DNA of 32,221 bases from Promethearchaeota archaeon. Lineage in GTDB: Archaea > Asgardarchaeota > Lokiarchaeia > Sigyniarchaeales > SOKP01. Shown one piece after another: positions 1 through 14,636 of the stretch. The stretch is from the NCBI GenBank assembly GCA_019894975.1, contig JAGXNO010000041.1, forward strand, positions 1 through 32,221, read 5' to 3'. How positions within the stretch are numbered: the first letter of the stretch is position 1; each line of letters opens with the position of its first letter. The notes beneath the pieces were generated by a model. That model did not search any database, was not told where the DNA came from, and worked only from the letters and a program-made list of their open reading frames with translations. The position numbers and the translations under genes are program-made.

Positions 1-1114
1 GTGCATCAGCATCAAGAACGTATGACTTCTTATCTGAATTTAATTTCTCTATTAAATTTATTAGTAAATTTTCAGATTCTTTTTGCACACCCAAGCCTGG
101 ACCGATAACTATAGCATTTGACCATTCAATTAATTCTGAGATCTCATCATATGATTTTATATCCAACCATTTCCCCGGGCTTGTTCTTACAATTATGTTA
201 GGAGAAAAATTTCTTATTACATCACCGACGACCTCAGGAACATATGTTATAACCAAATCTAATCCAAAATTAATCCCAGCTATCGAAGTATAAGCAGGAG
301 CACCAGAATAATTTATGGATCCTCCAATAACGAGCATTCTTCCAAAATTTCCCTTATGATTATCAACATCTCTAATTTTTAAGGTAGGGATTAAATCACC
401 AGTTCCCACAAATATAGTAGCTTCATAAGGAATTCCAATGGATCTAGTTACAATTTCATCAATATATTCACTATTAGTATCTAAACCTTTCTTAATTCGA
501 TGAAGTGATATAACTAAATCTGCTCTCACAGCTTTATGAAGGACTTCACCGGTATTCGGGTTCATTCCGGAAGGTAGATCAATTGATACAACTTTTACTC
601 CCCTTTCTCTTCTTAATCTATTGATTACATCGATAGCGGTTGATATTGGTTCTCTAATTTCTCCTGATACTCCTGTTCCTAATAACCCATCTATAATGAG
701 ACCTAAATCTTTGCTATTTTCACTCAACAATCTTATTTGTTCAATTTCAGTAGAGTCACGAATGATTAAGGTCTTAACCAAATGGTTTATATTGTTCCTA
801 ATTACTTTCCAATTAAACTGTGAGGCATGAGTTCTAATTTTTTCAGGACTTCCCACCAAAATTACTAAGGATTTAATATTAAATGCAGCTAATTGTCTTG
901 CTACTGCAAATCCATCTCCTCCATTATTTCCTGTCCCACAAAAAATTGCAACTGTAGATTTATCTTTGAGATTATATCTTTTTATAATTTCATCAGCAAT
1001 ACAATATCCGGCACATTCCATCAAATGAATTAAAGGAATTCCTAACCACTGGGCATTATTATCGGCAATAGCAACATCTTCAGCCGAAATTTTTTCAGAA
1101 TTAAATCTTTCCAT
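1..1114 (-). CDS. nnr: Bifunctional NAD(P)H-hydrate epimerase/dehydratase (YjeF_N + carbohydrate-kinase-like domain), 3' end runs off the window
   Basis: Not in the ORF track. Manual translation from ATG at 1114 gives MERFNSEKISAEDVAIADNNAQWLGIPLIHLMECAG...CGTGNNGGDG...IIDGLLGTG...SIDLPSG...HKGNFGRMLVIGGSINYSGAP...VIGPGLG...VLDADA, the canonical NnrE then NnrD motifs. Confidence 0.93.
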   Translation of the reverse strand, partial: MERFNSEKISAEDVAIADNNAQWLGIPLIHLMECAGYCIADEIIKRYNLKDKSTVAIFCGTGNNGGDGFAVARQLAAFNIKSLVILVGSPEKIRTHASQFNWKVIRNNINHLVKTLIIRDSTEIEQIRLLSENSKDLGLIIDGLLGTGVSGEIREPISTAIDVINRLRRERGVKVVSIDLPSGMNPNTGEVLHKAVRADLVISLHRIKKGLDTNSEYIDEIVTRSIGIPYEATIFVGTGDLIPTLKIRDVDNHKGNFGRMLVIGGSINYSGAPAYTSIAGINFGLDLVITYVPEVVGDVIRNFSPNIIVRTSPGKWLDIKSYDEISELIEWSNAIVIGPGLGVQKESENLLINLIEKLNSDKKSYVLDADA

Positions 1115-3990: not shown

Positions 3991-6900
3991 ATGATAAAAA
4001 AAAAAAGATCTTCTCGACTACCATTTTTTAAATCAAAAAGGTTGCAGAAAACCTTCTTCATATTTTTAATTATAATTAGTTCTGCTTCATCCTCATTTAT
4101 TTATAATAATCTTCTGAATATTTTTCAAAGTAACGAAATACGGGGAGATCACCTGATTAAAACATCTTCGGCTCCCGTTATTTCAGTCAATTCACCCGCA
4201 AATTATACATTATATGGGAAAATCGCACCAAACTTTTCTATTACCATTACTGGGGGACCAGGTAACTATTCTTGGTATGAATTCTTAGAAACTGGTGAAA
4301 ATTCTACTCTTTTCGAATTGAGTGGACTTTTAAATGAGGATGTTAATGAAACTTTTGATCAAAATTTATGGGATAACTTAAGTAATGGAACTGTTACTAT
4401 TAGATTCTATGCAAATGATTCTTCAAATGCAATTGGTTATATTGATGCCATTATTAGACTTGATATAATTGCGCCTGGAACTCCAAACTCTTTAGCAGCT
4501 ACACCCTCGTTATGGACTAATCTTAACAGTTTTAATATAACATGGTCAAATCCCTCTGAACCTTCTGGCATAGTAGGTGCCTATTATAAATTAGATGAAG
4601 CTCCAATGGCAGATGATGATGGAACTTATGTTGCAGGGATGGATATTGAGTCTATTCTAAATGTTTCAGTATCAACGGAAGGGAAACATGATATTTACGT
4701 ATGGTTAGTGGATACTGTTGGAAATGTTGATTATAACACCTATGCCTCAACAGAATTAAAATTGGATAGTGAAGATCCTATAAAACCAACCTCACTAGTA
4801 GCAACACCATCTTCCTGGACCAATCTTGATAGTTTTAATATAACATGGTCAAATCCGTCTGATACATCAGGAATAGTTGGTGCGTATTATAAATTGGATG
4901 CTACACCTATTACTGATGATGATGGGGCCTATGTTGCGGGATCAGATATCGAATCATTGATAGATATCCAAGTATCAGCAGAAGGTATGCATGATATTTA
5001 TGTATGGTTGGTCGATGATGCAGGAAATATTAATTACAGTGCTTATGAATCAGCGCAATTGTATTTAGATTCTAATAATCCTAATACACCAAGTATGTTA
5101 GAAGCAACACCATCGTCTTGGACTAGCCTTGATAGTTTTAATATAACATGGATAAATCCTTCTGACACATCAGGAATAGTTGGTGCGTACTATAAATTGG
5201 ATGCTACACCTATTGCCGATGATGATGGGACCTATATTGCGGGATCAGATATCGAATCGATATTAGGTATTCAAGTATCAACAGAAGGTATGCATGATAT
5301 TTATGTATGGTTGATCGATGATGCAAATAATATTAACTATAGTGCCTATGAATCGACGCAATTATACTTAGACTCATTTGCCCCTACTGCACCAAGTATG
5401 TTAGAAGCAACACCATCCTCCTGGACCAATCTTGATAGTTTTAATATAACATGGTCAAATCCGTCAGATACATCAGGAATAGTTGGTGCGTACTATAAAT
5501 TGGATGCTGCACCCATTGCTGATGATGATGGGACTTATGTTGCGGGATCAGATATCGAATCATTGATAGATATCCAAGTATCAACAGAAGGCATACATGA
5601 TATTTATGTATGGTTGGTCGATGATGTAAATAATATTAACTATAGTGCCTACGAATCGACGCAATTATACTTAGACTCATTTGCCCCTACTGCACCAAGT
5701 ATGTTAGAAGCAATACCATCCTCCTGGACCAATCTTGATAGTTTTAATATAACATGGATAAATCCTTCTGATACATCAGGAATCGTTGGTGCATACTATA
5801 AATTGGATGCTACCCCTATTGCCGATGATGATGGGACCTATGTTGCGGGATCAGATATCGAATCGATATTAGATATCCAAGTATCAACAGAAGGTATGCA
5901 TGATATTTATGTATGGTTGGTCGATAATGTAAATAATGTTAACTATAGTGCCTACGAGTCGACACAACTATTTTTAGATACGACAGATCCTTCTAAAGTG
6001 AGCTCTTTAGTAGCCAATCCTGTTTCATGGACGAACATTGACAGTTTTAATGTAACTTGGTCAAATCCCTCAGACACATCAGGAGTAATCGGTGCGTACT
6101 ATAAATTAGATGCTGCTCCTATTGCAGATGATGATGGTACTTATGTAGCAGGAACAGATATCGAATCATTGATAGATATCCAAGTATCAACAGAAGGTAT
6201 GCATGATATTTATGTATGGTTGGTCGATGATGCAAATAATATTAACTATAGTGCCTACGAATCAACACAATTATATCTTGATACCATACAACCAATTATA
6301 ATTGATTCTCAACCAGGAGATGATGGATTGCGTGACTCTGGAGGTACAACATATAATATTGACTTTTCGGATAACACTCCTTCATCAAATTTAGATTATG
6401 CCCAATATAGAATTACTACTGAAGCGGCACAAGGAGGAGTTGTTTTGAAAGACTGGACGAATATTTTTACATATCTTGGAACCACAGATTATACCATGGA
6501 TTGGTCAATTGATTTTAGTGTCTGTCAAGAGGGGATAAATTTTGTATCAGTACGAGTCTATGACATGGTAGGAAATATTGCTCTCTTAAATGATGCTTTT
6601 TATGTAAAAAAAGATACAATTGATCCAACTGTTATAGTTAATTCTCCTTTAAATAATACATATTGGAATACACCTCCTCCGATCAATATAACTGTTTTTG
6701 AACCAAATGCAGGATCTTCAACATACACTATACCCGGGACCCCACTACTACCTAATTGGTTAGATAACAACACAGAAGAACTATTAGATGGAGATACATG
6801 GGATATTTTACCTCAAGGACAATTTCAGATTGTTATTACGAGTTTTGATAGTCTAGGGCATGAGACTACGGTTGTTTTAACGCTATACAAAGATACTAAT

Positions 6901-9900
6901 GCACCGATTTTGTCTATTAATACTCCCACAAATAATACGTATTGGAATTTACGTCCTTCTTTTAATCTTACCGCGTTTGATCCAAATTTTGATTCTATTT
7001 GGTATAGTGTTAATAATATAAATATAACCATGTCAAATAACACTCTGGAACAATTGAATTTATCAATTTGGAATTCACTTCCTGGGGAAGGGGATTTCCA
7101 AGTTCAATTTTATGCGAATGACACCTTTGGTCATATAAATGACACATTCATACTAACACTCTATAAAGATATAACAACTCCAGATTTAATTATAAATTCT
7201 CCATATAATGACACCTATTGGAAATTTCCCCCAACCATCAGAGTTACAGTGACAGATTCTTATCTTCATACATTATGGTATCAAGTTGGAACTACTAATG
7301 TGGTTTTAGCAAATAATACTGATCAACCGTTAGATACTAGCATATGGGATCTTTTACCAGAAGAAGATGGATTTGAAATTCAATTTTATGCTAATGACTC
7401 TTCTGGGAATTTAAATGATATCTATATATTAAAACTCTATAAAGATGTTAGAAATCCCTCAATATCCATTGATAGTCCGAAAACAAACGGATTGTACGGA
7501 GATATTGCACCAAATTTTTATATTTCTATAATTGAAGATAATTTAAACCAGACTTGGTATACCTTAGATAACGGAACGACAAATTATATATTTTCAGGAT
7601 TAAGTGGACTAATAAACCAAACAGAATGGGATAATTTTGGTAATGGGAATGTAACAATCGGGTTTTATGCTAATGATACTTTGGGTAATCTAGGTTTTAA
7701 GGAAGTTACGGTTAGAAAAAACATAGACGCTCCAATTATCACTATAATCTCACCCGATGAAAATGATTTATTTGGTGTTGAAGCTCCAAATTTTACAATT
7801 TATAAATCAGGACTTGTATTAAACACTACCTGGTATACATTAGATGGTGGATTGACTAATTATACTTTTTATGGATTAAATGGAACAATAAATCAAACTG
7901 CTTGGGATCTTTTTGATTTTGAAAATGTCATTTTAATCTTTTACATAAATGATTCCCTTGGAAAAATAGGTTTTGATGAGGTGACAATTAGAAAAGATCC
8001 TGATCCCCCAGAAATTACAATTGATTTCATAAGCCCTGACAAAAATGATGAGTATTGTTCTGAGGCACCAGAGTTTAGAGTATATGTAAATGAACCAAAC
8101 CTTCAAAGGATATGGTATAGAGTGGGGATTACAGAGATATTGATATTAAGTAATACAGATATTACGCTTAATGGCTCAATTTGGGATGTCCTTCCTCAAG
8201 GGAAGTTTATAATCGAGATTTTCGCGGAAGATAAACTAGGATATATAAATGATCCTCTTAATTTGACTTTTTATAAAGACACTCTTGCCCCCCTATTAAT
8301 TGTAAATGCCCCATATGATCAGACTTACTATAATTCCCCCCCAGCGATTAACATCACTGTTTTTGACCCAAATTTTAACTCCCTTACTTATACTGTTGTA
8401 GGACATCTTCCAGGGAATAACTGGTTAGAAAATAATACTGCAGAATTAATAAATATAGATATATGGGATGATCTACCTCAAGGAGAGTTTCTTGTCAGTA
8501 TTACAGCTTACGATGAATTTGGTCATCTTAATGACACTTATATTTTGACATTATACAAAGATACTTTAGCACCGGTATTAGAAATCATTTTACCTGAGGG
8601 ATATTCGTCTTATAATTCTCCACCTCTTTTTAAGATAACTTCTGACGATCCTAATCTTCAATCTATGTGGTATAAAGTAGATGGGTCAATTTCAATTGAT
8701 TTCTTTAACAATACTGAACAAATACTCGATTCTTCAATATGGGATAGCATAACTGAAGGAGATTTTACTATAGAATTTTATGCTAATGATAGTTTTGGGT
8801 ATACTTGTCTTGCTGTAAATATAACTCTAAATAAAGATATAACAATACCTACCATAACTATCATTTCTCCAAATAACAATACTTACTATTCTGCGTCACC
8901 TAGTATGAATATATTAGCATCTGATGTAAATCTTGATAGTATTTGGTATAGTGTCATGGGTACTAAAATAATTCTTCTCTCTGGTCCAGAACCGCTAGAT
9001 ACAAATATTTGGGATAATTTACCTCAAGGAGAATTTCAAGTTCTAATTTTTGCAAACGATTCTGCAGGAAATTTAAATAATTCTTATACTCTTACTCTCT
9101 ATAAAGATACATTAGCACCATTAATAACTGTCAATTCACCCTACAACAATACCTATTGGAATTCAAGACCAATTCTTAATATAACGGCAATTGATCCGAA
9201 TTTATTATCACTTAGTTATAAAGTACTTGAATATTCATTAGTATTGCCAAACAATATAGATGTGTTATTGAATTCTTTTGTTTGGTCTCAAGTATCAGAA
9301 GGGACGTTTATTATAGAGATTATTGCAGAAGATTCTCTTGGTAATATAAATAATTCCGTGAAAATTACATTAGTTAAAGATACTTATGCACCAGAGATAA
9401 ATATTAGTTTACCTCAACCAAATGAACTATTTGGGGCTATTGCGCCAAATTTTGAAATTTCTATGATCGAACCTTATCTCAATAGTACGTGGTATACTCT
9501 AATTGGTGAATCGCAAAGTTTTGTATTTAACAGTTCTACCGGGACAATTAACCAAACAGAATGGGATAAATTTGGTAATGGAACTGTCACTATTCGGTTT
9601 ATGGCAAATGATCTAGCAGGGAATTTAGGTTACAAAGATATTACCGTAAGAAAAAATATTTTTGCTCCTATTATCACTATCAGTTCTCCTGGACATGATG
9701 ATATATTTGGGATAAATTCCCCTGATTTTGTAATATATAAATCTGGATCTGAAATTCAAGAAACGTGGTATACATTAGATAATGGTTTAACGAATTACAC
9801 ATTTTCAGGATTAAGTGGATTCATTAATCAAACCGCATGGGATAATTTTGGTTATGAAAGCGTCACCATTAAGTTTTATCTCAATGATTCAATAGGAAAG

Positions 9901-10701
9901 ATTGGATATGATGAGGTGCTAGTAAATAAAGACCCAAATCCACCAACAATCATTGTGAATTCTCCTCTTAATCAAACGTATTATGCTTCCGCGCCATTTA
10001 TTAATATTACAATTATAGAACCAAATTTACATAGAGTTTGGTATGTAGTCAATTCTATAATAATTGATATAACAGATAATTTCACACAAAATTTTGACTC
10101 TTTTATATGGAATAATTTATCTCAAGGATTATTTATAGTGAAACTTTATGCTAATGACACTTTAGGTAATCTGAATAATTTATTTGAGCTATCTCTATTG
10201 AAAGATACTATAGGACCCAATATCACAATACTTCTACCACATGAAAATCAGAAGGTTGATAGAAATAATCCTTTTTTTGAACTTATTCTTTTTGATATAA
10301 ATGATATAGATCTCTCTTGGTACACTATTGAAGGAAGTCCCCCCATTCCATTTACGGGTACTATAGGCAGAATTGATAAGGATCTATGGGAAAATATTTG
10401 GGATAACCTAACCAGAGGAGCTAGCATGACCATTAGATTCTATTCATCTGATAAACTTGGAAATATAAATTACAAGGATATTACTGTGATCAAATATCAA
10501 CCCGTTGGTGATATTATCTCTAATCCAATAGGATTTATTTCATCAACTGTAGGTGTTATGGCAATGATTCCCATTACCGTGAAATTAACTAGAAGCCGGT
10601 ATTACGAGAAATTAAACAAGAAGGAGAAAAGTAAGCTTAAAAAAGTTTTAGTTGCTGCTTTTCTCACATTATCTGTAACAGCTATATTTTTTGCTTTTTA
10701 G
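3991..10701 (+). CDS. Giant cell-surface glycoprotein/adhesin-like protein with tandem Ig/FnIII-like domains, N-terminal signal/anchor and C-terminal two-helix membrane anchor
   Basis: Basic + hydrophobic N-terminus; six 101-aa repeats; about 15 ~90-aa repeats (P.I.I.SP...Y....P.....WY...W..L..G...I..YAND..GN); many N-x-S/T sequons; two hydrophobic C-terminal segments around a Lys-rich linker. Confidence 0.85.
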   Translation: MIKKKRSSRLPFFKSKRLQKTFFIFLIIISSASSSFIYNNLLNIFQSNEIRGDHLIKTSSAPVISVNSPANYTLYGKIAPNFSITITGGPGNYSWYEFLETGENSTLFELSGLLNEDVNETFDQNLWDNLSNGTVTIRFYANDSSNAIGYIDAIIRLDIIAPGTPNSLAATPSLWTNLNSFNITWSNPSEPSGIVGAYYKLDEAPMADDDGTYVAGMDIESILNVSVSTEGKHDIYVWLVDTVGNVDYNTYASTELKLDSEDPIKPTSLVATPSSWTNLDSFNITWSNPSDTSGIVGAYYKLDATPITDDDGAYVAGSDIESLIDIQVSAEGMHDIYVWLVDDAGNINYSAYESAQLYLDSNNPNTPSMLEATPSSWTSLDSFNITWINPSDTSGIVGAYYKLDATPIADDDGTYIAGSDIESILGIQVSTEGMHDIYVWLIDDANNINYSAYESTQLYLDSFAPTAPSMLEATPSSWTNLDSFNITWSNPSDTSGIVGAYYKLDAAPIADDDGTYVAGSDIESLIDIQVSTEGIHDIYVWLVDDVNNINYSAYESTQLYLDSFAPTAPSMLEAIPSSWTNLDSFNITWINPSDTSGIVGAYYKLDATPIADDDGTYVAGSDIESILDIQVSTEGMHDIYVWLVDNVNNVNYSAYESTQLFLDTTDPSKVSSLVANPVSWTNIDSFNVTWSNPSDTSGVIGAYYKLDAAPIADDDGTYVAGTDIESLIDIQVSTEGMHDIYVWLVDDANNINYSAYESTQLYLDTIQPIIIDSQPGDDGLRDSGGTTYNIDFSDNTPSSNLDYAQYRITTEAAQGGVVLKDWTNIFTYLGTTDYTMDWSIDFSVCQEGINFVSVRVYDMVGNIALLNDAFYVKKDTIDPTVIVNSPLNNTYWNTPPPINITVFEPNAGSSTYTIPGTPLLPNWLDNNTEELLDGDTWDILPQGQFQIVITSFDSLGHETTVVLTLYKDTNAPILSINTPTNNTYWNLRPSFNLTAFDPNFDSIWYSVNNINITMSNNTLEQLNLSIWNSLPGEGDFQVQFYANDTFGHINDTFILTLYKDITTPDLIINSPYNDTYWKFPPTIRVTVTDSYLHTLWYQVGTTNVVLANNTDQPLDTSIWDLLPEEDGFEIQFYANDSSGNLNDIYILKLYKDVRNPSISIDSPKTNGLYGDIAPNFYISIIEDNLNQTWYTLDNGTTNYIFSGLSGLINQTEWDNFGNGNVTIGFYANDTLGNLGFKEVTVRKNIDAPIITIISPDENDLFGVEAPNFTIYKSGLVLNTTWYTLDGGLTNYTFYGLNGTINQTAWDLFDFENVILIFYINDSLGKIGFDEVTIRKDPDPPEITIDFISPDKNDEYCSEAPEFRVYVNEPNLQRIWYRVGITEILILSNTDITLNGSIWDVLPQGKFIIEIFAEDKLGYINDPLNLTFYKDTLAPLLIVNAPYDQTYYNSPPAINITVFDPNFNSLTYTVVGHLPGNNWLENNTAELINIDIWDDLPQGEFLVSITAYDEFGHLNDTYILTLYKDTLAPVLEIILPEGYSSYNSPPLFKITSDDPNLQSMWYKVDGSISIDFFNNTEQILDSSIWDSITEGDFTIEFYANDSFGYTCLAVNITLNKDITIPTITIISPNNNTYYSASPSMNILASDVNLDSIWYSVMGTKIILLSGPEPLDTNIWDNLPQGEFQVLIFANDSAGNLNNSYTLTLYKDTLAPLITVNSPYNNTYWNSRPILNITAIDPNLLSLSYKVLEYSLVLPNNIDVLLNSFVWSQVSEGTFIIEIIAEDSLGNINNSVKITLVKDTYAPEINISLPQPNELFGAIAPNFEISMIEPYLNSTWYTLIGESQSFVFNSSTGTINQTEWDKFGNGTVTIRFMANDLAGNLGYKDITVRKNIFAPIITISSPGHDDIFGINSPDFVIYKSGSEIQETWYTLDNGLTNYTFSGLSGFINQTAWDNFGYESVTIKFYLNDSIGKIGYDEVLVNKDPNPPTIIVNSPLNQTYYASAPFINITIIEPNLHRVWYVVNSIIIDITDNFTQNFDSFIWNNLSQGLFIVKLYANDTLGNLNNLFELSLLKDTIGPNITILLPHENQKVDRNNPFFELILFDINDIDLSWYTIEGSPPIPFTGTIGRIDKDLWENIWDNLTRGASMTIRFYSSDKLGNINYKDITVIKYQPVGDIISNPIGFISSTVGVMAMIPITVKLTRSRYYEKLNKKEKSKLKKVLVAAFLTLSVTAIFFAF
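4462..6279 (+). repeat. Six tandem intragenic 303-bp (101-aa) repeats
   Basis: Equivalent codons recur at 4501, 4804, 5107, 5410, 5713, 6016 (exact 303-bp period). Inner copies are near-identical at DNA level (..SFNITWSNPSDTSGIVGAYYKLDA.P.ADDDGTYVAGSDIES..). Confidence 0.97.
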
Positions 10702-10739: not shown

Positions 10740-11711
10740 TTATTTCTTTGAGTGCTTTAAAATAAGTTGATATTCATAGAAATCTAGTTTTTTTCCAGAC
10801 TTTTGTTTCTCTAATGCGATTTCTAATTTTTTTTGTTCAAGTCTTTTAACTTTCTTTTTCTTTTTAATAAGAGCTTTAACATCTGATGTTTTTAACACTT
10901 TTGGTCTCAAGAAACTTTTTGTTTTATTTGATAAATCGTCTAATAACACTTTTCTGTTGAGGTTCATCAATTTTAGGAAAAGTTGGTGGAATCCTTCTGC
11001 AGACGTTTTATTTTCTATTAATTCATTTTCTATTTCTTGCTTAGCTTTTTCAAATCCTTTTGCTTTCTTACATAAATCCAGTAATTTCTTATGAGTCATT
11101 AACCTTTTTCTAGATAAATCATATAAATTTTCATAAATTTCAGTTAGAGTGTTCTCAAGGTCTTTAATTTTTCTTTGAGTACTAAAATAATCACTACTCT
11201 GTAATTTTTTTAGTTGTGTTTGCTCTAATTGTGTTAGGTTATTCTTTTTTTTTTTTTTATCTGTTTCTAAATCCCTAAGCTGTTCAATAATTTCATTTTC
11301 CTCTTCAATATCTAAAATTTGCTCTTCAAGTTTTTGATTCAAATATACTATTTTATTCTCAATATCTTCAAGAGATTTCTTCGTGTAATCAACTAAGACT
11401 AAAGCATTTTCATTTATTTGTGGTTTTGGAAAATTTTCTATCTTTTTACTAAGATGACTCCAATGTCGTTCATATTCGATTTTTTTATGTTTCAAATTTG
11501 CTATTTTTATATTATAGTCATAACGCTTTTTAGAGTAAAACTTTCTCGCATCAATTAATGTGTTGTAGATTTCGGAATCAAAACTCTGAAAGCTGATAAT
11601 ATAATTTTTGAGTTTGCTATTTAGCTGTTCCTTCTCAAGCACAAATTCTTTAACTTTTTTTTGCGCTTCCTTTAGATGATGATCAAAATTAAAATCTTTT
11701 TCGTCACTCAT
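10740..11711 (-). CDS. Long coiled-coil protein, COG1340-like archaeal family
   Basis: K/E/L-rich heptads throughout. C-terminal LEIALEKQKSGKKLDFYEYQLIL resembles the G(E/K)KL tail of COG1340-type archaeal coiled-coil proteins (recalled). Confidence 0.65.
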   Translation of the reverse strand: MSDEKDFNFDHHLKEAQKKVKEFVLEKEQLNSKLKNYIISFQSFDSEIYNTLIDARKFYSKKRYDYNIKIANLKHKKIEYERHWSHLSKKIENFPKPQINENALVLVDYTKKSLEDIENKIVYLNQKLEEQILDIEEENEIIEQLRDLETDKKKKKNNLTQLEQTQLKKLQSSDYFSTQRKIKDLENTLTEIYENLYDLSRKRLMTHKKLLDLCKKAKGFEKAKQEIENELIENKTSAEGFHQLFLKLMNLNRKVLLDDLSNKTKSFLRPKVLKTSDVKALIKKKKKVKRLEQKKLEIALEKQKSGKKLDFYEYQLILKHSKK

Positions 11712-12070: not shown

Positions 12071-14083
12071 ATGACTTCCATATTGAACGTATCTAATAGT
12101 ATTGGAAAAAGGAATACACTAAGATTGAGGGAAATAGGAATCGACTCTATAGAAAAATTAGCATCCTCAAGCGTAGAAGATTTACTTGTAATAGATGGTA
12201 TTGGAGTTTCAACTGCTAAAACTTATATTCAGTTTGCGAAGAAGCATCTTCAACGAATTGATGCAAGATCAAAAGTATACAGTATAATTAACAAAGGGAG
12301 TGCATCAGAAGAATCAAGATCGGGAGATAACCCAATTAGATTGCAACAATTTGAAAAGAAAAGAGTGTCTATCAGCTCAATAAAAAAAATTGCTTCTTCT
12401 AGTATTGAAGAGTTGTTGAAAACAAACGGTATAGATACTGCAAAAGCACAAAAGTATATCGAGATTGCAAAAAAGTATCTAGTAAGTATGAGGAAAGAAG
12501 AATTAGCAAATAAAGGAACACGATCATCTTTAAAACAACAAGATCAACCTTTGGGTTTTGTAAAATTTGACTCTAAAAGTTCTATACCGAAAATGGAACC
12601 AATTGCATCAAACAAACAAAAAGAAGACTCCACTATTGAAAGACCGCAGCAAACAATAAAGAAGCCAACACTTAACATTAAAGCCCTTAAGAAACCAACT
12701 CTTGACATAAAACTGACTGAAAAACCATTACAGAGAAAGGAAGTAAAACCAAAATTAGTAAAAGTAAATGTTGATACAAAAAAACAACCAGAAACGCAAA
12801 CTTTTTTCCCACTACCAACAATGCAAAAGATACGTTTCTTACACTTTAGTATTAAAAAATTAGAAAAAATCTTAGAGAGAAATGAAGACTTTTCCTTCTC
12901 AGAACTTAATAATGTTATAGAATACATAAAAAATCTTAACGTTAACTATAAAACCCAAAGCCAAATTAAGATCTTTAAAGAATTAGATATCACTCCCTCA
13001 TTTTATGATCCCATTGCGAGAAAAGAGATAAAAATATGGGATTTGATTTATGAATGTTCAAGAGCACTTTGGATTTCAGCAAAAGCATACTCTTATCTCT
13101 CTGCCAAATTCGAAGCAGAAAATGTAATGGAAAAAGCAATAGTGGCGATGGTTGAGTGTAGTAAAATGTTTAAAACTGCCGCATATTTTAGCGCTGCTTG
13201 CACTCGCCAAGAAGATAAAGGGATAGCATTATCTGTTAATAGTCTTGAAATGAATTCAGAGGAAGCTCGTATACTTGCTCAAAACTTAGCTACTATCAGT
13301 GAAGAAAAGAAGGGAAATTTCTCGATGGCCTCTCATTTATCTGCAGGATTAAGTGCACTTACTAAAAGATTGGCATTTCTAAGAAAATATAACATAAAAA
13401 AGGAATATCAATTTAAAGCTCAGCATAATTATGATATTGGAAGAGCTTGTAATTTAAAAGCCAAATATCTATTAAAAGCGTCTCCTGAAGGAGAAAATGA
13501 AGAAAAAATCGAAAAATTACAGAAAAAGGCAAATTTCTATTATATAAATGCTGAAGAAATATGGGAAACTATGCTAAATAAATTTGAGAACCTTACCGAT
13601 ATTGAAAAGGAAAGTTTACGAACCAATTTGTCTATAGTAAATAATAATATTATAGAAAATGATGTTGAGACAATTAATGATGCAGAAGCTCTAGAAATAC
13701 AAGATCCAGAACCCCTTATTATAATTCCAGAAAACTTAGCACCATTTATTCCACGAACTACCAATTTCCTTACAAAGTATAAGCAGGCTGATCTTAACTT
13801 TGACGCATATTTACGTTATAAAAATTTAATGTCTGAAGTTGCAATTGATTCAAATAAAATCGAAGAATTAAAAAATAGTAAAGCGGGTATTGGTCGAACG
13901 TTAAAACAATTAAAAATCTTGTATGATAATAATGATATTGATATTAACAGCTTTACTGAACTATTTGAAAAGTACTCAATTAAACTTGAAGGAATTGAGG
14001 CTGCAATTCAAAACTTGAAAAATCCTAAAATTAAAAGTAAAGGATCAGAAGAGCAGAAACATATTCTTAAAACAATTATGTAA
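12071..14083 (+). CDS. Multidomain protein: two helix-hairpin-helix (HHH_5/Rad51-N-like) modules, K/P-rich linker, putative Bro1-like domain, putative steadiness-box/CdvA-like C-terminal helical hairpin
   Basis: LREIGIDSIEKLASSSVEDLLVIDGIGVSTAK and its repeat (HhH, confident). FYDP..IWDLIYECSRALW..AYSYLSA..LS..SL..ILAQ..MASHLSAG..IENDVETI (Bro1-like, by eye). AGIGRTLKQLKILYDNNDIDINSFTELFEKYSIK (SB-like, by eye). Confidence 0.6.
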   Translation: MTSILNVSNSIGKRNTLRLREIGIDSIEKLASSSVEDLLVIDGIGVSTAKTYIQFAKKHLQRIDARSKVYSIINKGSASEESRSGDNPIRLQQFEKKRVSISSIKKIASSSIEELLKTNGIDTAKAQKYIEIAKKYLVSMRKEELANKGTRSSLKQQDQPLGFVKFDSKSSIPKMEPIASNKQKEDSTIERPQQTIKKPTLNIKALKKPTLDIKLTEKPLQRKEVKPKLVKVNVDTKKQPETQTFFPLPTMQKIRFLHFSIKKLEKILERNEDFSFSELNNVIEYIKNLNVNYKTQSQIKIFKELDITPSFYDPIARKEIKIWDLIYECSRALWISAKAYSYLSAKFEAENVMEKAIVAMVECSKMFKTAAYFSAACTRQEDKGIALSVNSLEMNSEEARILAQNLATISEEKKGNFSMASHLSAGLSALTKRLAFLRKYNIKKEYQFKAQHNYDIGRACNLKAKYLLKASPEGENEEKIEKLQKKANFYYINAEEIWETMLNKFENLTDIEKESLRTNLSIVNNNIIENDVETINDAEALEIQDPEPLIIIPENLAPFIPRTTNFLTKYKQADLNFDAYLRYKNLMSEVAIDSNKIEELKNSKAGIGRTLKQLKILYDNNDIDINSFTELFEKYSIKLEGIEAAIQNLKNPKIKSKGSEEQKHILKTIM

Positions 14084-14096
14084 TTAAGAATGTCGG

Positions 14097-14636
14097 GTGC
14101 TTACTATTATCACTAACTTGAAAGATGTTGCTAAGAAAACAATTTTTAATTCTAAATTGATTGAGATAGTTAAAAAAGCGATTTTCTACCTCATTCTAGG
14201 AACCATCATTTTGATTTTCATTTTTAATCAATTAGTAGGTGTATTGCTAGCTGGTTCTTTTTTCATCATATACATCATTTATTACTTGTTTACTCTTTCT
14301 TCTAAGAGAAGAGTTCTAAAATTAATGCAAGAATATTTAATCATAAATGATATAGAAGTTGCGGAAAAGTTAAAACGTCCCATAGATGATATTAGAAAGA
14401 TATTATCCTCATTATCTAAAAATCAGAAAAAAAAAACATGGTTATTAGTCTTTTTGAATAAACGATATCTATTTCTAAACGAAATAGGGGTAGAAAAGTT
14501 CAAAGAATACTATAGTAAAGGCTATAATGAGAAAAAGATTTTAGAAAATTTACAGAAAGACATGAAAATAAGATCCAGGGCTGAGATTAATGCAATCATA
14601 ACTACTCTAATTAATAATGAAAGGCTTAGCAACTAA
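14097..14636 (+). CDS. Membrane protein with two TM helices and a C-terminal winged-helix/PCI-like domain
   Basis: Two adjacent hydrophobic segments, then INDIEVAEKLKRPIDDIRKILSSL (HTH) and beta-wing WLLVFLNKRYLF. Starts 13 bp after the previous stop. Confidence 0.6.
   Translation: MLTIITNLKDVAKKTIFNSKLIEIVKKAIFYLILGTIILIFIFNQLVGVLLAGSFFIIYIIYYLFTLSSKRRVLKLMQEYLIINDIEVAEKLKRPIDDIRKILSSLSKNQKKKTWLLVFLNKRYLFLNEIGVEKFKEYYSKGYNEKKILENLQKDMKIRSRAEINAIITTLINNERLSN

Follow-up and report, generated by a model that had tools for sequence, protein, structure and literature searches.

The gene at positions 12071-14083 of the window (the whole 32,221-nucleotide stretch of DNA analysed here, from a Lokiarchaeial contig) was best explained as encoding a modular adaptor, P0001, composed of a basic helix-hairpin-helix (HhH) head, a Bro1 fold and a hairpin of the ESCRT-I steadiness-box (SB) type, and accompanied by a downstream gene for a partner with two transmembrane helices (2-TM); for this whole explanation, mechanism included, we put the probability at about 0.5. 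The open reading frame starts with ATG and encodes 670 aa. A word-based search recovered 417 homologues at E<=1e-3 and, among the matches listed, these shared 55-95% identity across 96-100% of the length; the reading frame is a genuine conserved gene and no chance ORF. In public records the homologues were named only "helix-hairpin-helix domain-containing protein" or "hypothetical", and the only Pfam family found in P0001 was HHH_5, as the first-pass annotation had forecast for automated annotation. The motifs quoted there (PSFYDP, IWDLIYECSRALW, AYSYLSA, ILAQ, MASHLSA and ENDVETI) were all located in the translation, as was the hairpin stretch AGIGRTLKQLKILYDNNDIDINSFTELFEKYSIK at aa 605-638, and its by-eye domain calls hold because the fold, profile and Pfam HHH_5 evidence agree. 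Full-text searches of the openly available literature, including the main papers on Asgard ESCRT and on structure-based ESPs, gave no description of this fusion or family. Assembled contigs of a 93-97% identical relative in two metatranscriptome libraries covered most of the gene, and one of them bridged the junction between the Bro1-like gene and the gene downstream, which is a weak hint of expression and no proof of transcription or of a single transcript. The features are as follows:

12071..14083, forward strand: entire gene of P0001 (670 aa; HhH head, basic linker, Bro1-like domain and SB-like hairpin), from the ORF list and translation
12101..12241, forward strand: (HhH)2 module 1, aa 11-57, Pfam HHH_5 above cut-off
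12353..12490, forward strand: second, degenerate HhH module, aa ~95-140, second HHH_5 stretch
12491..12781, forward strand: Lys/Pro-rich low-complexity linker, aa 141-237, with a KKPTL(N/D)IK repeat, from the sequence
12782..13756, forward strand: predicted Bro1-fold domain, aa 238-562, from the AlphaFold2 model, Foldseek, VIA, ESM Atlas and the Pfam match of a distant homologue
13757..13822, forward strand: connector after the Bro1-like domain, aa 563-584, low-confidence and partly helical in the model
13823..14032, forward strand: SB-like helical hairpin, aa ~585-654, from the AlphaFold2 helices and hhalign
14097..14636, forward strand: partner gene for a 179-aa protein (P0176) with two predicted transmembrane helices and a cytoplasmic tandem winged helix, from the AlphaFold2 model and fold search

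Bro1-like domain and C-terminal hairpin

An AlphaFold2 model of aa 235-670 (pLDDT 83.6), built on a shallow alignment of 24 sequences, contained an all-helical solenoid with one small beta-hairpin at aa ~248-562, followed by an extended conserved segment and then by a two-helix hairpin. This extended segment, DPEPLIIIPENLAPFIPRTT (aa 545-564), is nearly invariant, forms the end of the Bro1-like domain and precedes the connector. When the model was searched against the PDB with Foldseek, the top 21 matches were all Bro1 domains (E 7e-6 to 3e-4). A fold comparison with the Bro1 domain of ALIX, a check that the first-pass annotation had proposed, was also made with VIA and placed the solved Bro1 domains of ALIX, HD-PTP, BROX and yeast Bro1 on top, with Z 20.3-21.9 and rmsd 4.0-4.8 Å over 279-300 residues (model 4..328 against Bro1 chain ~22..348); the next-best fold had Z 11.9 and the highest TPR-type match lay ~10 Z units below the Bro1 domains, helical repeats being a class that readily reaches middling Z scores in such comparisons. 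In ESM Atlas, the language-model feature neighbours of the domain were BRO1 clusters in 24 of 30 cases, and the independent model held there reached TM 0.67-0.70 against PTPN23, BRO1 and rhophilin clusters.

At the sequence level the evidence came through a distant stand-alone homologue, P0155, which matched the Bro1-like domain of P0001 at E 7e-20 and Pfam BRO1 at E 3.2e-8 (33.3 bits, 1.8 bits under the gathering score of 35.1), and whose subfamily profile retrieved the P0001 family over its full length at E 1e-45 to 1e-62. Pfam BRO1 (PF03097) itself gave no match to P0001, either at E<=1 or in a check run extended to E<=10, and none at E<=10 in the whole genome; Pfam scans of two 24-member alignment sets yielded one BRO1 match each, in both cases P0155. 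Nothing significant for Bro1 was retrieved in PDB sequence searches with phmmer and hmmsearch using P0001, P0155 and profiles A3 and A4. Taken together, the computations indicated that the ~325-aa domain adopts, as modelled, a Bro1 fold and is homologous to the Bro1 domains of ALIX, Bro1, HD-PTP and BROX.

The likeness to ALIX/PDCD6IP (2oew, 3c3o), yeast Bro1 (1zb1), HD-PTP/PTPN23 (3rau, 5mk0, 5mk2) and BROX (3r9m, 3um3) lies in the predicted fold over ~280-300 residues (Z 20-22), with the same helix order, a small beta-hairpin close to the N-terminus and a C-terminal segment that is extended, whereas sequence identity is just 10-13% and PF03097 misses P0001. The V domain, proline-rich region, PTP, PDZ and CAAX of the eukaryotic proteins are absent from P0001, which has the HhH head and the SB-like hairpin instead, and we know of no eukaryote with this architecture. 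Bro1 domains hold the C-terminal helix of CHMP4/Snf7-type ESCRT-III in a conserved hydrophobic pocket on their concave face. The family-invariant residues of the P0001 domain include R400, Q404, G426, L427, R433 and W498 and lie on central helices; they may be equivalent to ALIX F199, I212 and L216, and by analogy the domain may bind ESCRT-III. The genome's own ESCRT-IIIB is absent from the assembly (tblastn found nothing, and contig C153 breaks off within Vps4), so the last 69 residues of an ESCRT-IIIB from the same genus (A6), a protein that in this genus ends ...DEKIAELEKELNRLKSDE, were used for a complex prediction with the Bro1-like domain (A3, residues 8-340), which, run without controls, returned "no answer" with a score of 0.00 and speaks neither for nor against binding.

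The C-terminal stretch was modelled as two helices (aa 594-619 and 625-650, pLDDT 86-89) forming an antiparallel hairpin. Its alleged likeness to the steadiness box was upheld by hhalign: against 23 Asgard Vps23_core (PF09454) sequences the probability was 95.6% (E 1.1e-8, 70 columns), it stayed at 94.9% without same-lineage sequences and at 94.7% and 90.1% with other subfamily alignments, and it was 45% from an alignment of long forms only, whereas the signal was gone in the controls (reversed, shuffled and ESCRT-III including ESCRT-IIIB; 0.2-1.2%). PF09454 gave no match to P0001 even at E<=10, and for a distant subfamily HMMER weakly matched the SB of yeast Vps23 (2f66, 2caz; E 0.6-0.9) in the same place. 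The profile comparison thus assigns the predicted hairpin to the ESCRT-I steadiness-box (Vps23-core/CdvA) type. With the Vps23/TSG101 core it shares the ~60-70-aa helical hairpin and the pattern EL...K..I...L..L...(F/Y)(D/E)..(D/E)I....(F/Y)T.L(F/Y).KY...L, whereas P0001 is without the UEV, the coiled-coil stalk and the Vps28 domain of ESCRT-I proteins. The Znr_CC_PH_SB protein of the same genome, P0179, is likewise long and multidomain and carries its hairpin at the C-terminus; Znr_CC_PH_SB (asCOG cog.011556; Makarova et al. 2024, PMC10936438) is one of the Asgard SB proteins. Steadiness boxes assemble with hairpins of the Vps28/Vps37/Mvb12 type into the ESCRT-I headpiece, and the P0001 hairpin may do likewise; weak SHOCT-type likeness in distant members leaves room for a simpler role in oligomerisation.

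Downstream partner gene, distribution and genomic context

The gene for P0176 begins 13 nt past the stop codon of the P0001 gene. In its AlphaFold2 model (pLDDT 88.6) a transmembrane hairpin was followed by a winged helix and three helices, the predicted cytoplasmic part being aa ~78-179, and the best fold matches were the tandem winged-helix domains of SelB (Z 8-10.4); no winged helix of ESCRT-II, CdvB or LEM2 appeared among the top 50 fold matches, though a relationship to these may exist. In 24 of 29 other long-form loci the next gene downstream was a P0176 homologue, an arrangement that also occurred in divergent members.

A survey of Asgard genomes gave the Bro1-like family a range that was not Asgard-wide and was essentially one Lokiarchaeia family: it was present in 127 of the 134 genomes of that family (f1) and in 1 of 14 of f3, with hardly any members in the rest of the phylum. 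The 2-TM winged-helix family had the same narrow phyletic range (102/105 in f1 and 1/9 in f3). Since the Bro1-like family is missing from nearly all other ESCRT-bearing Asgard lineages, including a sister family with single-contig genomes (4.4 and 6.0 Mb), it cannot belong to the core of the ESCRT machinery. Nearly all genomes of the same Lokiarchaeial family also had a shorter protein (~410 aa) made up of Bro1 and hairpin, of which the form with the fused HhH is a lineage-specific paralogue. The short paralogue and distant relatives had a conserved neighbourhood of their own, with a divergent ATP-grasp ligase and two unknown proteins, to which an Arf-like GTPase was added in the distant relatives.

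No ESCRT genes were found in the window, beside the gene, its paralogue or five distant relatives, or at any locus examined. ESCRT-IIIA (P0181), Vps4, Vps25 and an SB protein were encoded on other contigs of this genome, which together with its relatives encodes ESCRT-III A and B, Vps4, Vps25 and the SB protein. This context would suit a Bro1-fold scaffold outside ESCRT, a reading that we consider possible but doubtful, in which P0001 and its 2-TM partner would tether DNA or nucleoprotein to the membrane, whether to anchor or segregate the chromosome, to take up DNA or to serve a mobile element, with the solenoid and the hairpin as a scaffold for binding or oligomerisation. Besides the lack of ESCRT genes nearby, it draws on the un-ESCRT-like neighbourhood of the short paralogue, on a fixed partner that is a membrane winged-helix protein with its best fold matches in the nucleic-acid-binding winged helices of SelB, and on a range that is narrow despite the Asgard-wide presence of ESCRT. 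Yet all the Bro1 domains known to us are linked to ESCRT-III, and the same chain has an ESCRT-I SB-like hairpin, two ESCRT-type modules in one protein being hardly a matter of chance. Against this reading stands, too, that Asgard ESCRT genes are known to be often dispersed (PMC9192718).

HhH head, basic linker and remaining alternatives

Of the two HhH modules claimed by the first-pass annotation, one was found to be canonical and the other degenerate. Pfam HHH_5 matched P0001 in two stretches (E 9.2e-10, 39.3 bits against a gathering cut-off of 27), the best being aa 11-57 with a GhG hairpin (GIG at aa 43-45). The second module, at aa ~95-140, showed the conserved pattern ASSS..E(D/E)L...GI...A.(K/R)YI.IA, and weak matches were obtained to UPF0758_N and HhH-GPD at aa 94-164 and to the HhH of DNA polymerase beta at profile positions 100-148. 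The Lys/Pro-rich linker proposed to be disordered and to repeat KKPTL(N/D)IK does carry such a repeat, IKKPTLNIKALKKPTLDIK, at aa ~196-214; its length varies and repeat expansions occurred in homologues, e.g. P0038. All this part of the protein was basic: aa 1-75 had pI 9.9 and net charge +5, the HhH modules pI 9.7-9.9, the linker (aa 146-244) pI 10.1 and net charge +12, and aa 1-244 net charge +21, while each of the 20 homologues aligned carried a net charge between +11 and +44 on its N-terminal ~240 aa. These charges (pI 9.7-10.1, net +21 over aa 1-244) suggest that the head may bind DNA without sequence specificity.

Searched against the PDB, the HhH family profile matched NusA AR2 best (E 7e-6), followed by the N-terminal domains of RadA/Rad51 (E 2e-4 to 4e-3), over aa ~5-60. 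The NusA AR1/AR2 repeats bind protein rather than DNA, so DNA binding by the head is not assured. In an alternative reading the ESCRT adaptor would have no affinity for DNA: its (HhH)2 would act as protein-protein modules in the manner of NusA AR1/AR2 and its linker would bind acidic membrane lipids, and P0001 would serve ESCRT-III as a membrane or cargo adaptor and not tether the chromosome; the degenerate second module and the ability of Lys-rich disordered linkers to bind membranes speak for it together with the NusA match. We regard it as improbable: the NusA repeats are acidic, whereas the P0001 modules and the N-terminal part of all the aligned homologues are basic, and the profile also matched the N-terminal domains of RadA/Rad51, which contact DNA. 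The P0001 head is attached to neither a recombinase nor NusA.

It is very improbable that the Bro1 and SB likeness is convergent or a modelling artefact, in the form of a generic TPR-like solenoid with a SHOCT-type or coiled-coil oligomerisation motif, for although the folding alignment was shallow, the identity low, middling Z easily reached by helical repeats and weak MIT, TPR and SHOCT matches present in Pfam scans of some family members, Z ~21 extended over nearly the entire Bro1 domain against Z<=12 for TPR folds, two independent predictors (AlphaFold2 and ESM Atlas) concurred, the clear homologue P0155 matched Pfam BRO1 at the sequence level and the hairpin signal was lost in the reversed and shuffled controls.

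Proposed tether and its significance

In the adaptor reading, the basic HhH head would hold nucleic acid, probably dsDNA, by its backbone and irrespective of sequence, the Bro1 domain would dock an ESCRT-III subunit by its C-terminal helix, the hairpin would pair with other SB hairpins of the cell (Vps28, free SB protein, Znr_CC_PH_SB) or with itself, and the 2-TM winged-helix partner would anchor the assembly at the membrane. The net outcome would be DNA coupled to ESCRT-III membrane remodelling, e.g. at division. The function of a DNA-tethered ESCRT adaptor, as first put forward, does not yet follow from the domain calls.

The proposed logic resembles that of CdvA in Crenarchaeota and of LEM2-CHMP7 in eukaryotes. 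CdvA binds DNA and membrane and recruits the ESCRT-III homologue CdvB, and an SB-like hairpin has been noted in it (Makarova et al. 2024, PMC10936438). By analogy, P0001 would likewise bind nucleic acid, bear a hairpin and bring ESCRT-III to the membrane, a winged helix again being involved in the contact; its domains differ, however, CdvA combining a PRC barrel with an E3B peptide and having neither Bro1 nor HhH, and the winged helix sits on CdvB in the CdvA/CdvB pair and on the separate 2-TM protein P0176 here. LEM2/Heh1, a 2-TM protein of the inner nuclear membrane, has a helix-extension-helix head that binds chromatin and a winged helix that together with CHMP7 nucleates ESCRT-III. The gene pair described here would offer an equal parts list, namely a DNA-binding-type helical head, two transmembrane helices, a winged helix and a putative ESCRT-III-docking module, but the parts are divided over two proteins, the head is HhH and not LEM/HeH, the docking module is Bro1-like and not an ESCRT-II/III hybrid, and the winged helix of P0176 is closest to SelB, with none from ESCRT-II or LEM2 in the top list.

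Bro1/ALIX is among the conserved upstream recruiters of ESCRT-III in eukaryotes. The Bro1 domain, the docking module of ALIX/Bro1 for ESCRT-III, has been reported as not identifiable in Asgard archaea, and earlier Asgard "Bro1" matches, entered with a different Pfam number, were short proteins of Hodarchaeales, Njordarchaeales and Thorarchaeia (PMC10307638). A full-length Bro1-fold domain in Lokiarchaeia would supply a missing piece of the Asgard ESCRT parts list, and provides a clonable candidate for the long-open question of how archaeal ESCRT-III is targeted and possibly coupled to the chromosome. Its confinement to one family raises the question of whether it is an ancient component that other lineages have lost, was acquired from eukaryotes or arose locally. 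More tentative is the proposition that P0001 is a true archaeal ESCRT-III adaptor of the Bro1/ALIX lineage, with Bro1, SB and DNA-binding head in one chain, which with its winged-helix partner forms a chromatin-to-membrane ESCRT-III tether in Asgard division. If this were true, one chain would unite both eukaryotic routes to ESCRT-III, the Bro1 domain and the ESCRT-I-type steadiness box, and would have either foreshadowed in prokaryotes or invented independently the logic of ALIX in abscission and of LEM2-CHMP7 at the nuclear envelope.

The gene and its Bro1-like domain

The gene under study lies in an AT-rich window (27-36% G+C):

12071-14083, + strand: open reading frame with an ATG start, encoding P0001 (670 aa)

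Each feature that the first-pass annotation had listed for this reading frame was found in the translation, and the helical-domain motifs and the aa 605-638 segment agree with P0001 as quoted there. A word-based search returned 417 homologues. Among the 120 matches listed, identity to P0001 was 55-95% and query coverage 81-100% (mostly 96-100%), all were from Asgard metagenome bins, and the only public names were 'helix-hairpin-helix domain-containing protein' or 'hypothetical protein'. This is a real gene, and its family is far more conserved over the last 430 residues than in the head.

A Bro1 domain had been proposed from motifs compared by eye. Pfam BRO1 did not match P0001, and searching the entire genome with this model gave zero matches up to E<=10; the proposal was upheld instead by fold and by a distant homologue. 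An exhaustive HMMER search of 1.84 billion cluster representatives with aa 235-670 of P0001 retrieved only 55 clusters, including three stand-alone proteins of about 400 aa (P0150, P0155 and P0160; 24-27% identity, E 1e-15 to 5e-27). P0155 matched Pfam BRO1 with E 3.2e-8 and 33.3 bits (cut-off 35.1), its aa 9-182 corresponding to profile positions 33-208 of 385. When P0150, P0155 and P0160 were combined into a profile, it recovered the P0001 family over its full length (E 1e-45 to 1e-62), and the homology link is therefore firm.

The same region was folded from a 24-sequence alignment (pLDDT 83.6, pTM 0.71). All 21 Foldseek matches of this model in the PDB at E<=1e-3 were Bro1 domains (yeast Bro1, HD-PTP, BROX and ALIX), below which the scores fell steeply to designed helical repeats. 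VIA-align superposed the model on Bro1 domains with Z 20.3-21.9 and rmsd 4.0-4.8 A over 279-300 aligned residues, pairing model residues 4 to 328 with chain residues of about 22 to 348, nearly the entire domain; the best unrelated fold was the SRP68 RNA-binding domain (Z 11.9), followed by TPR proteins. Independent support came from the ESM Atlas, in which BRO1 accounted for 24 of the 30 named clusters closest to P0001 in language-model features (score 0.92), and whose own model of P0001 resembled the PTPN23, BRO1-domain and rhophilin clusters (TM 0.67-0.70). Residues ~238-562 are thus very probably a genuine, highly diverged Bro1 domain.

The C-terminal hairpin

The segment that had been aligned by eye with the TSG101/Vps23 steadiness box (SB) forms a two-helix hairpin in the predicted model. 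Pfam Vps23_core did not match P0001, and its sole match in this genome, below threshold, was P0179, which is encoded near an ESCRT-III gene:

L036:7019-9043 (contig C131), + strand: P0179 (674 aa), with Zn-ribbons, PH, a Q/N-rich linker and a C-terminal SB (Vps23_core 18-23 bits)
L036:10245-10898, - strand: P0181, A-type ESCRT-III two genes from P0179, its C-terminus MIM1-like in appearance

The alignment was nevertheless borne out when 23 Asgard segments found phylum-wide by Vps23_core (the SB set) were compared by hhalign with the P0001-family alignment (A3), controls included.

Table. hhalign probabilities for the SB set
A3, aa ~585-654: 95.6% (E 1.1e-8, 70 columns)
Next-best local alignment in A3: 0.2%
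Control, A3 columns reversed: 1.2%
Control, ESCRT-IIIB alignment: 0.4%
Control, hairpin columns shuffled (n = 20): 0.2% each
SB set minus two same-lineage proteins: 94.9%
Short-form alignment: 94.7%
P0150, P0155 and P0160: 90.1%
Long-form-only alignment (low diversity), same place: 45%

The profile of the three distant relatives also matched, weakly and at the same position, the yeast Vps23 SB in the solved ESCRT-I core (2f66, 2caz; E 0.6-0.9). Since distant family members show weak SHOCT-type matches, the hairpin may have a simpler oligomerisation role. P0179 is a candidate partner for the P0001 hairpin and appears to be a member of the Znr_CC_PH_SB family described by Makarova et al. 2024.

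Two forms of the family and a conserved gene pair

Whole-genome searches placed the Bro1-like family in 127 of the 134 genomes of one GTDB family, with one weak occurrence in 14 genomes of its sister family within the order (which includes single-contig genomes of 4.4 and 6.0 Mb) and near-absence elsewhere in the phylum. Almost all genomes of the GTDB family carry a short form of about 410 aa, comprising the Bro1-like domain and hairpin only; a subset carries the HhH-fused long form (~670 aa), with frequent tandem duplicates. The short paralogue of this genome is:

C89:16554-17777 (L035:9552-10781), - strand: P0180 (409 aa)

It is transcribed divergently from an ATP-grasp ligase (preATP-grasp_3 and ATP-grasp_3), after which come two unknown proteins (~211 and ~142 aa). 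The P0155 and P0160 loci have the same four-gene arrangement, the P0150 locus agrees with it in gene order (by gene calls), and all three additionally contain an Arf-like GTPase. Given this common neighbourhood, the short form is probably older and the P0001 gene a derived fusion.

The long form is followed by a second gene:

14097-14636, + strand: P0176 (179 aa), beginning 13 nt downstream of the P0001 gene

P0176 is modelled (pLDDT 88.6) as a hairpin of transmembrane helices, one winged helix and three further helices, and its cytoplasmic part matches the fold of the SelB tandem winged helices (Z 8-10.4). The range of this two-transmembrane winged-helix family matches that of the Bro1-like family (102/105 genomes, versus 1/9 in the sister family). 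Of 29 other long-form loci, 24 have a homologue immediately downstream in the same orientation, the remaining five being truncated contigs or tandem long-form copies; homologues are also found downstream of family members at only 38-45% identity. Sister-genus loci (L017, L021, L024, L023, L029, L027, L033 and L034) often carry the HhH-Bro1-like gene in tandem duplicate; in L023 and L029 a two-transmembrane winged-helix gene lies on the upstream side of the examined copy, and so behind the gene before it. Most genomes hold a further two-transmembrane winged-helix paralogue, unlinked to any Bro1-like gene.

Contigs of a 93-97% identical relative from two metatranscriptome libraries span most of the P0001 gene, a weak hint of expression. 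A 267-nt sediment-metatranscriptome contig from a close relative (6 differences) covers window positions 13985-14251, with the stop of the P0001 gene and the start of the P0176 gene; it is compatible with co-transcription, without proving it.

Proposed function and alternatives

On computational evidence, P0001 has a four-module architecture and its gene forms a conserved pair with that of P0176. In the proposed mechanism, to which we give a probability of roughly 0.5, the pair would recruit ESCRT-III between DNA and membrane: the basic HhH head would bind nucleic acid, the Bro1 domain would dock the C-terminal helix of an ESCRT-III, the hairpin would pair with other SB hairpins or with itself, and P0176 would provide the membrane anchor. 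In its logic such a recruiter would be analogous to CdvA and to LEM2-CHMP7.

A DNA-membrane tether unrelated to ESCRT, merely using the Bro1 and SB folds, is somewhat unlikely. No ESCRT genes were found within the window, whose other genes encode a 2236-aa repeat protein, a GNAT acetyltransferase, a methyltransferase, YhhN and flavin enzymes; against such a tether, ESCRT-III C-terminal helix docking is, to our knowledge, the sole known activity of the Bro1 fold. ESCRT components are encoded elsewhere in the genome, P0179 and P0181 among them, together with:

C153:92863-94269: Vps25 and a C-terminal fragment of Vps4, cut off by the extreme contig end

In relatives, a B-type ESCRT-III gene is transcribed divergently from Vps4, beside a small GTPase; its absence here reflects a gap in the assembly rather than gene loss. 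Upstream of the P0001 gene lie:

3991-10701, + strand: the 2236-aa reading frame, whose sole matches (Ig-like, PKD and Y_Y_Y repeats) are scattered and below threshold, probably encoding a large surface or adhesion protein
10740-11711, - strand: a 323-aa reading frame with no Pfam family and a weak HepT-like match (E 0.03)

The latter is dissimilar to the upstream genes of two divergent long-form relatives, and is thus outside any conserved unit.

An ESCRT adaptor without DNA binding is less probable still, and here the head bears on the question. The two HhH modules described earlier were recovered as two Pfam HHH_5 stretches (E 9.2e-10, above cut-off; best at aa 11-57), with weaker HhH-type matches at about aa 94-164, and the linker does contain the reported repeat, IKKPTLNIKALKKPTLDIK. 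A profile of the first 150 residues of the family matched NusA AR2 (E 7e-6), the N-terminal (HhH)2 domains of RadA and Rad51 (E 2e-4 to 4e-3) and Hel308 domain 5. As NusA acidic repeats bind proteins, DNA binding does not follow from the (HhH)2 fold by itself. Both P0001 HhH modules are basic (pI 9.7-9.9), as is the linker (pI 10.1), and the N-terminal ~240 residues carry a net charge of +11 to +44 in 20 of 20 aligned homologues, a charge compatible with polyanion binding. In one homologue, P0038, the linker is lengthened by roughly ten tandem repeats of a KAQRKPKIDE-like decapeptide; linker length can thus vary freely with the charge preserved.

That the Bro1 and SB likeness arose by convergence or artefact is very improbable beside the profile and fold matches.

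The Bro1 domain had been reported to be unidentifiable in Asgard archaea. 'Bro1' best-domain matches have been tabulated in Hodarchaeales, Njordarchaeales and Thorarchaeia, as short proteins under PF18097, none of them Lokiarchaeial (Eme et al. 2023, PMC10307638). Two recent structure-based surveys of Asgard proteins make no mention of Bro1 or ALIX, at least in their main texts, other Asgard-ESCRT papers refer to ALIX only as eukaryotic background, and no description of the P0001 family was found in the searchable literature. For a Bro1-domain protein, P0001 is unprecedented in its architecture and comes from a domain of life where it was not expected.
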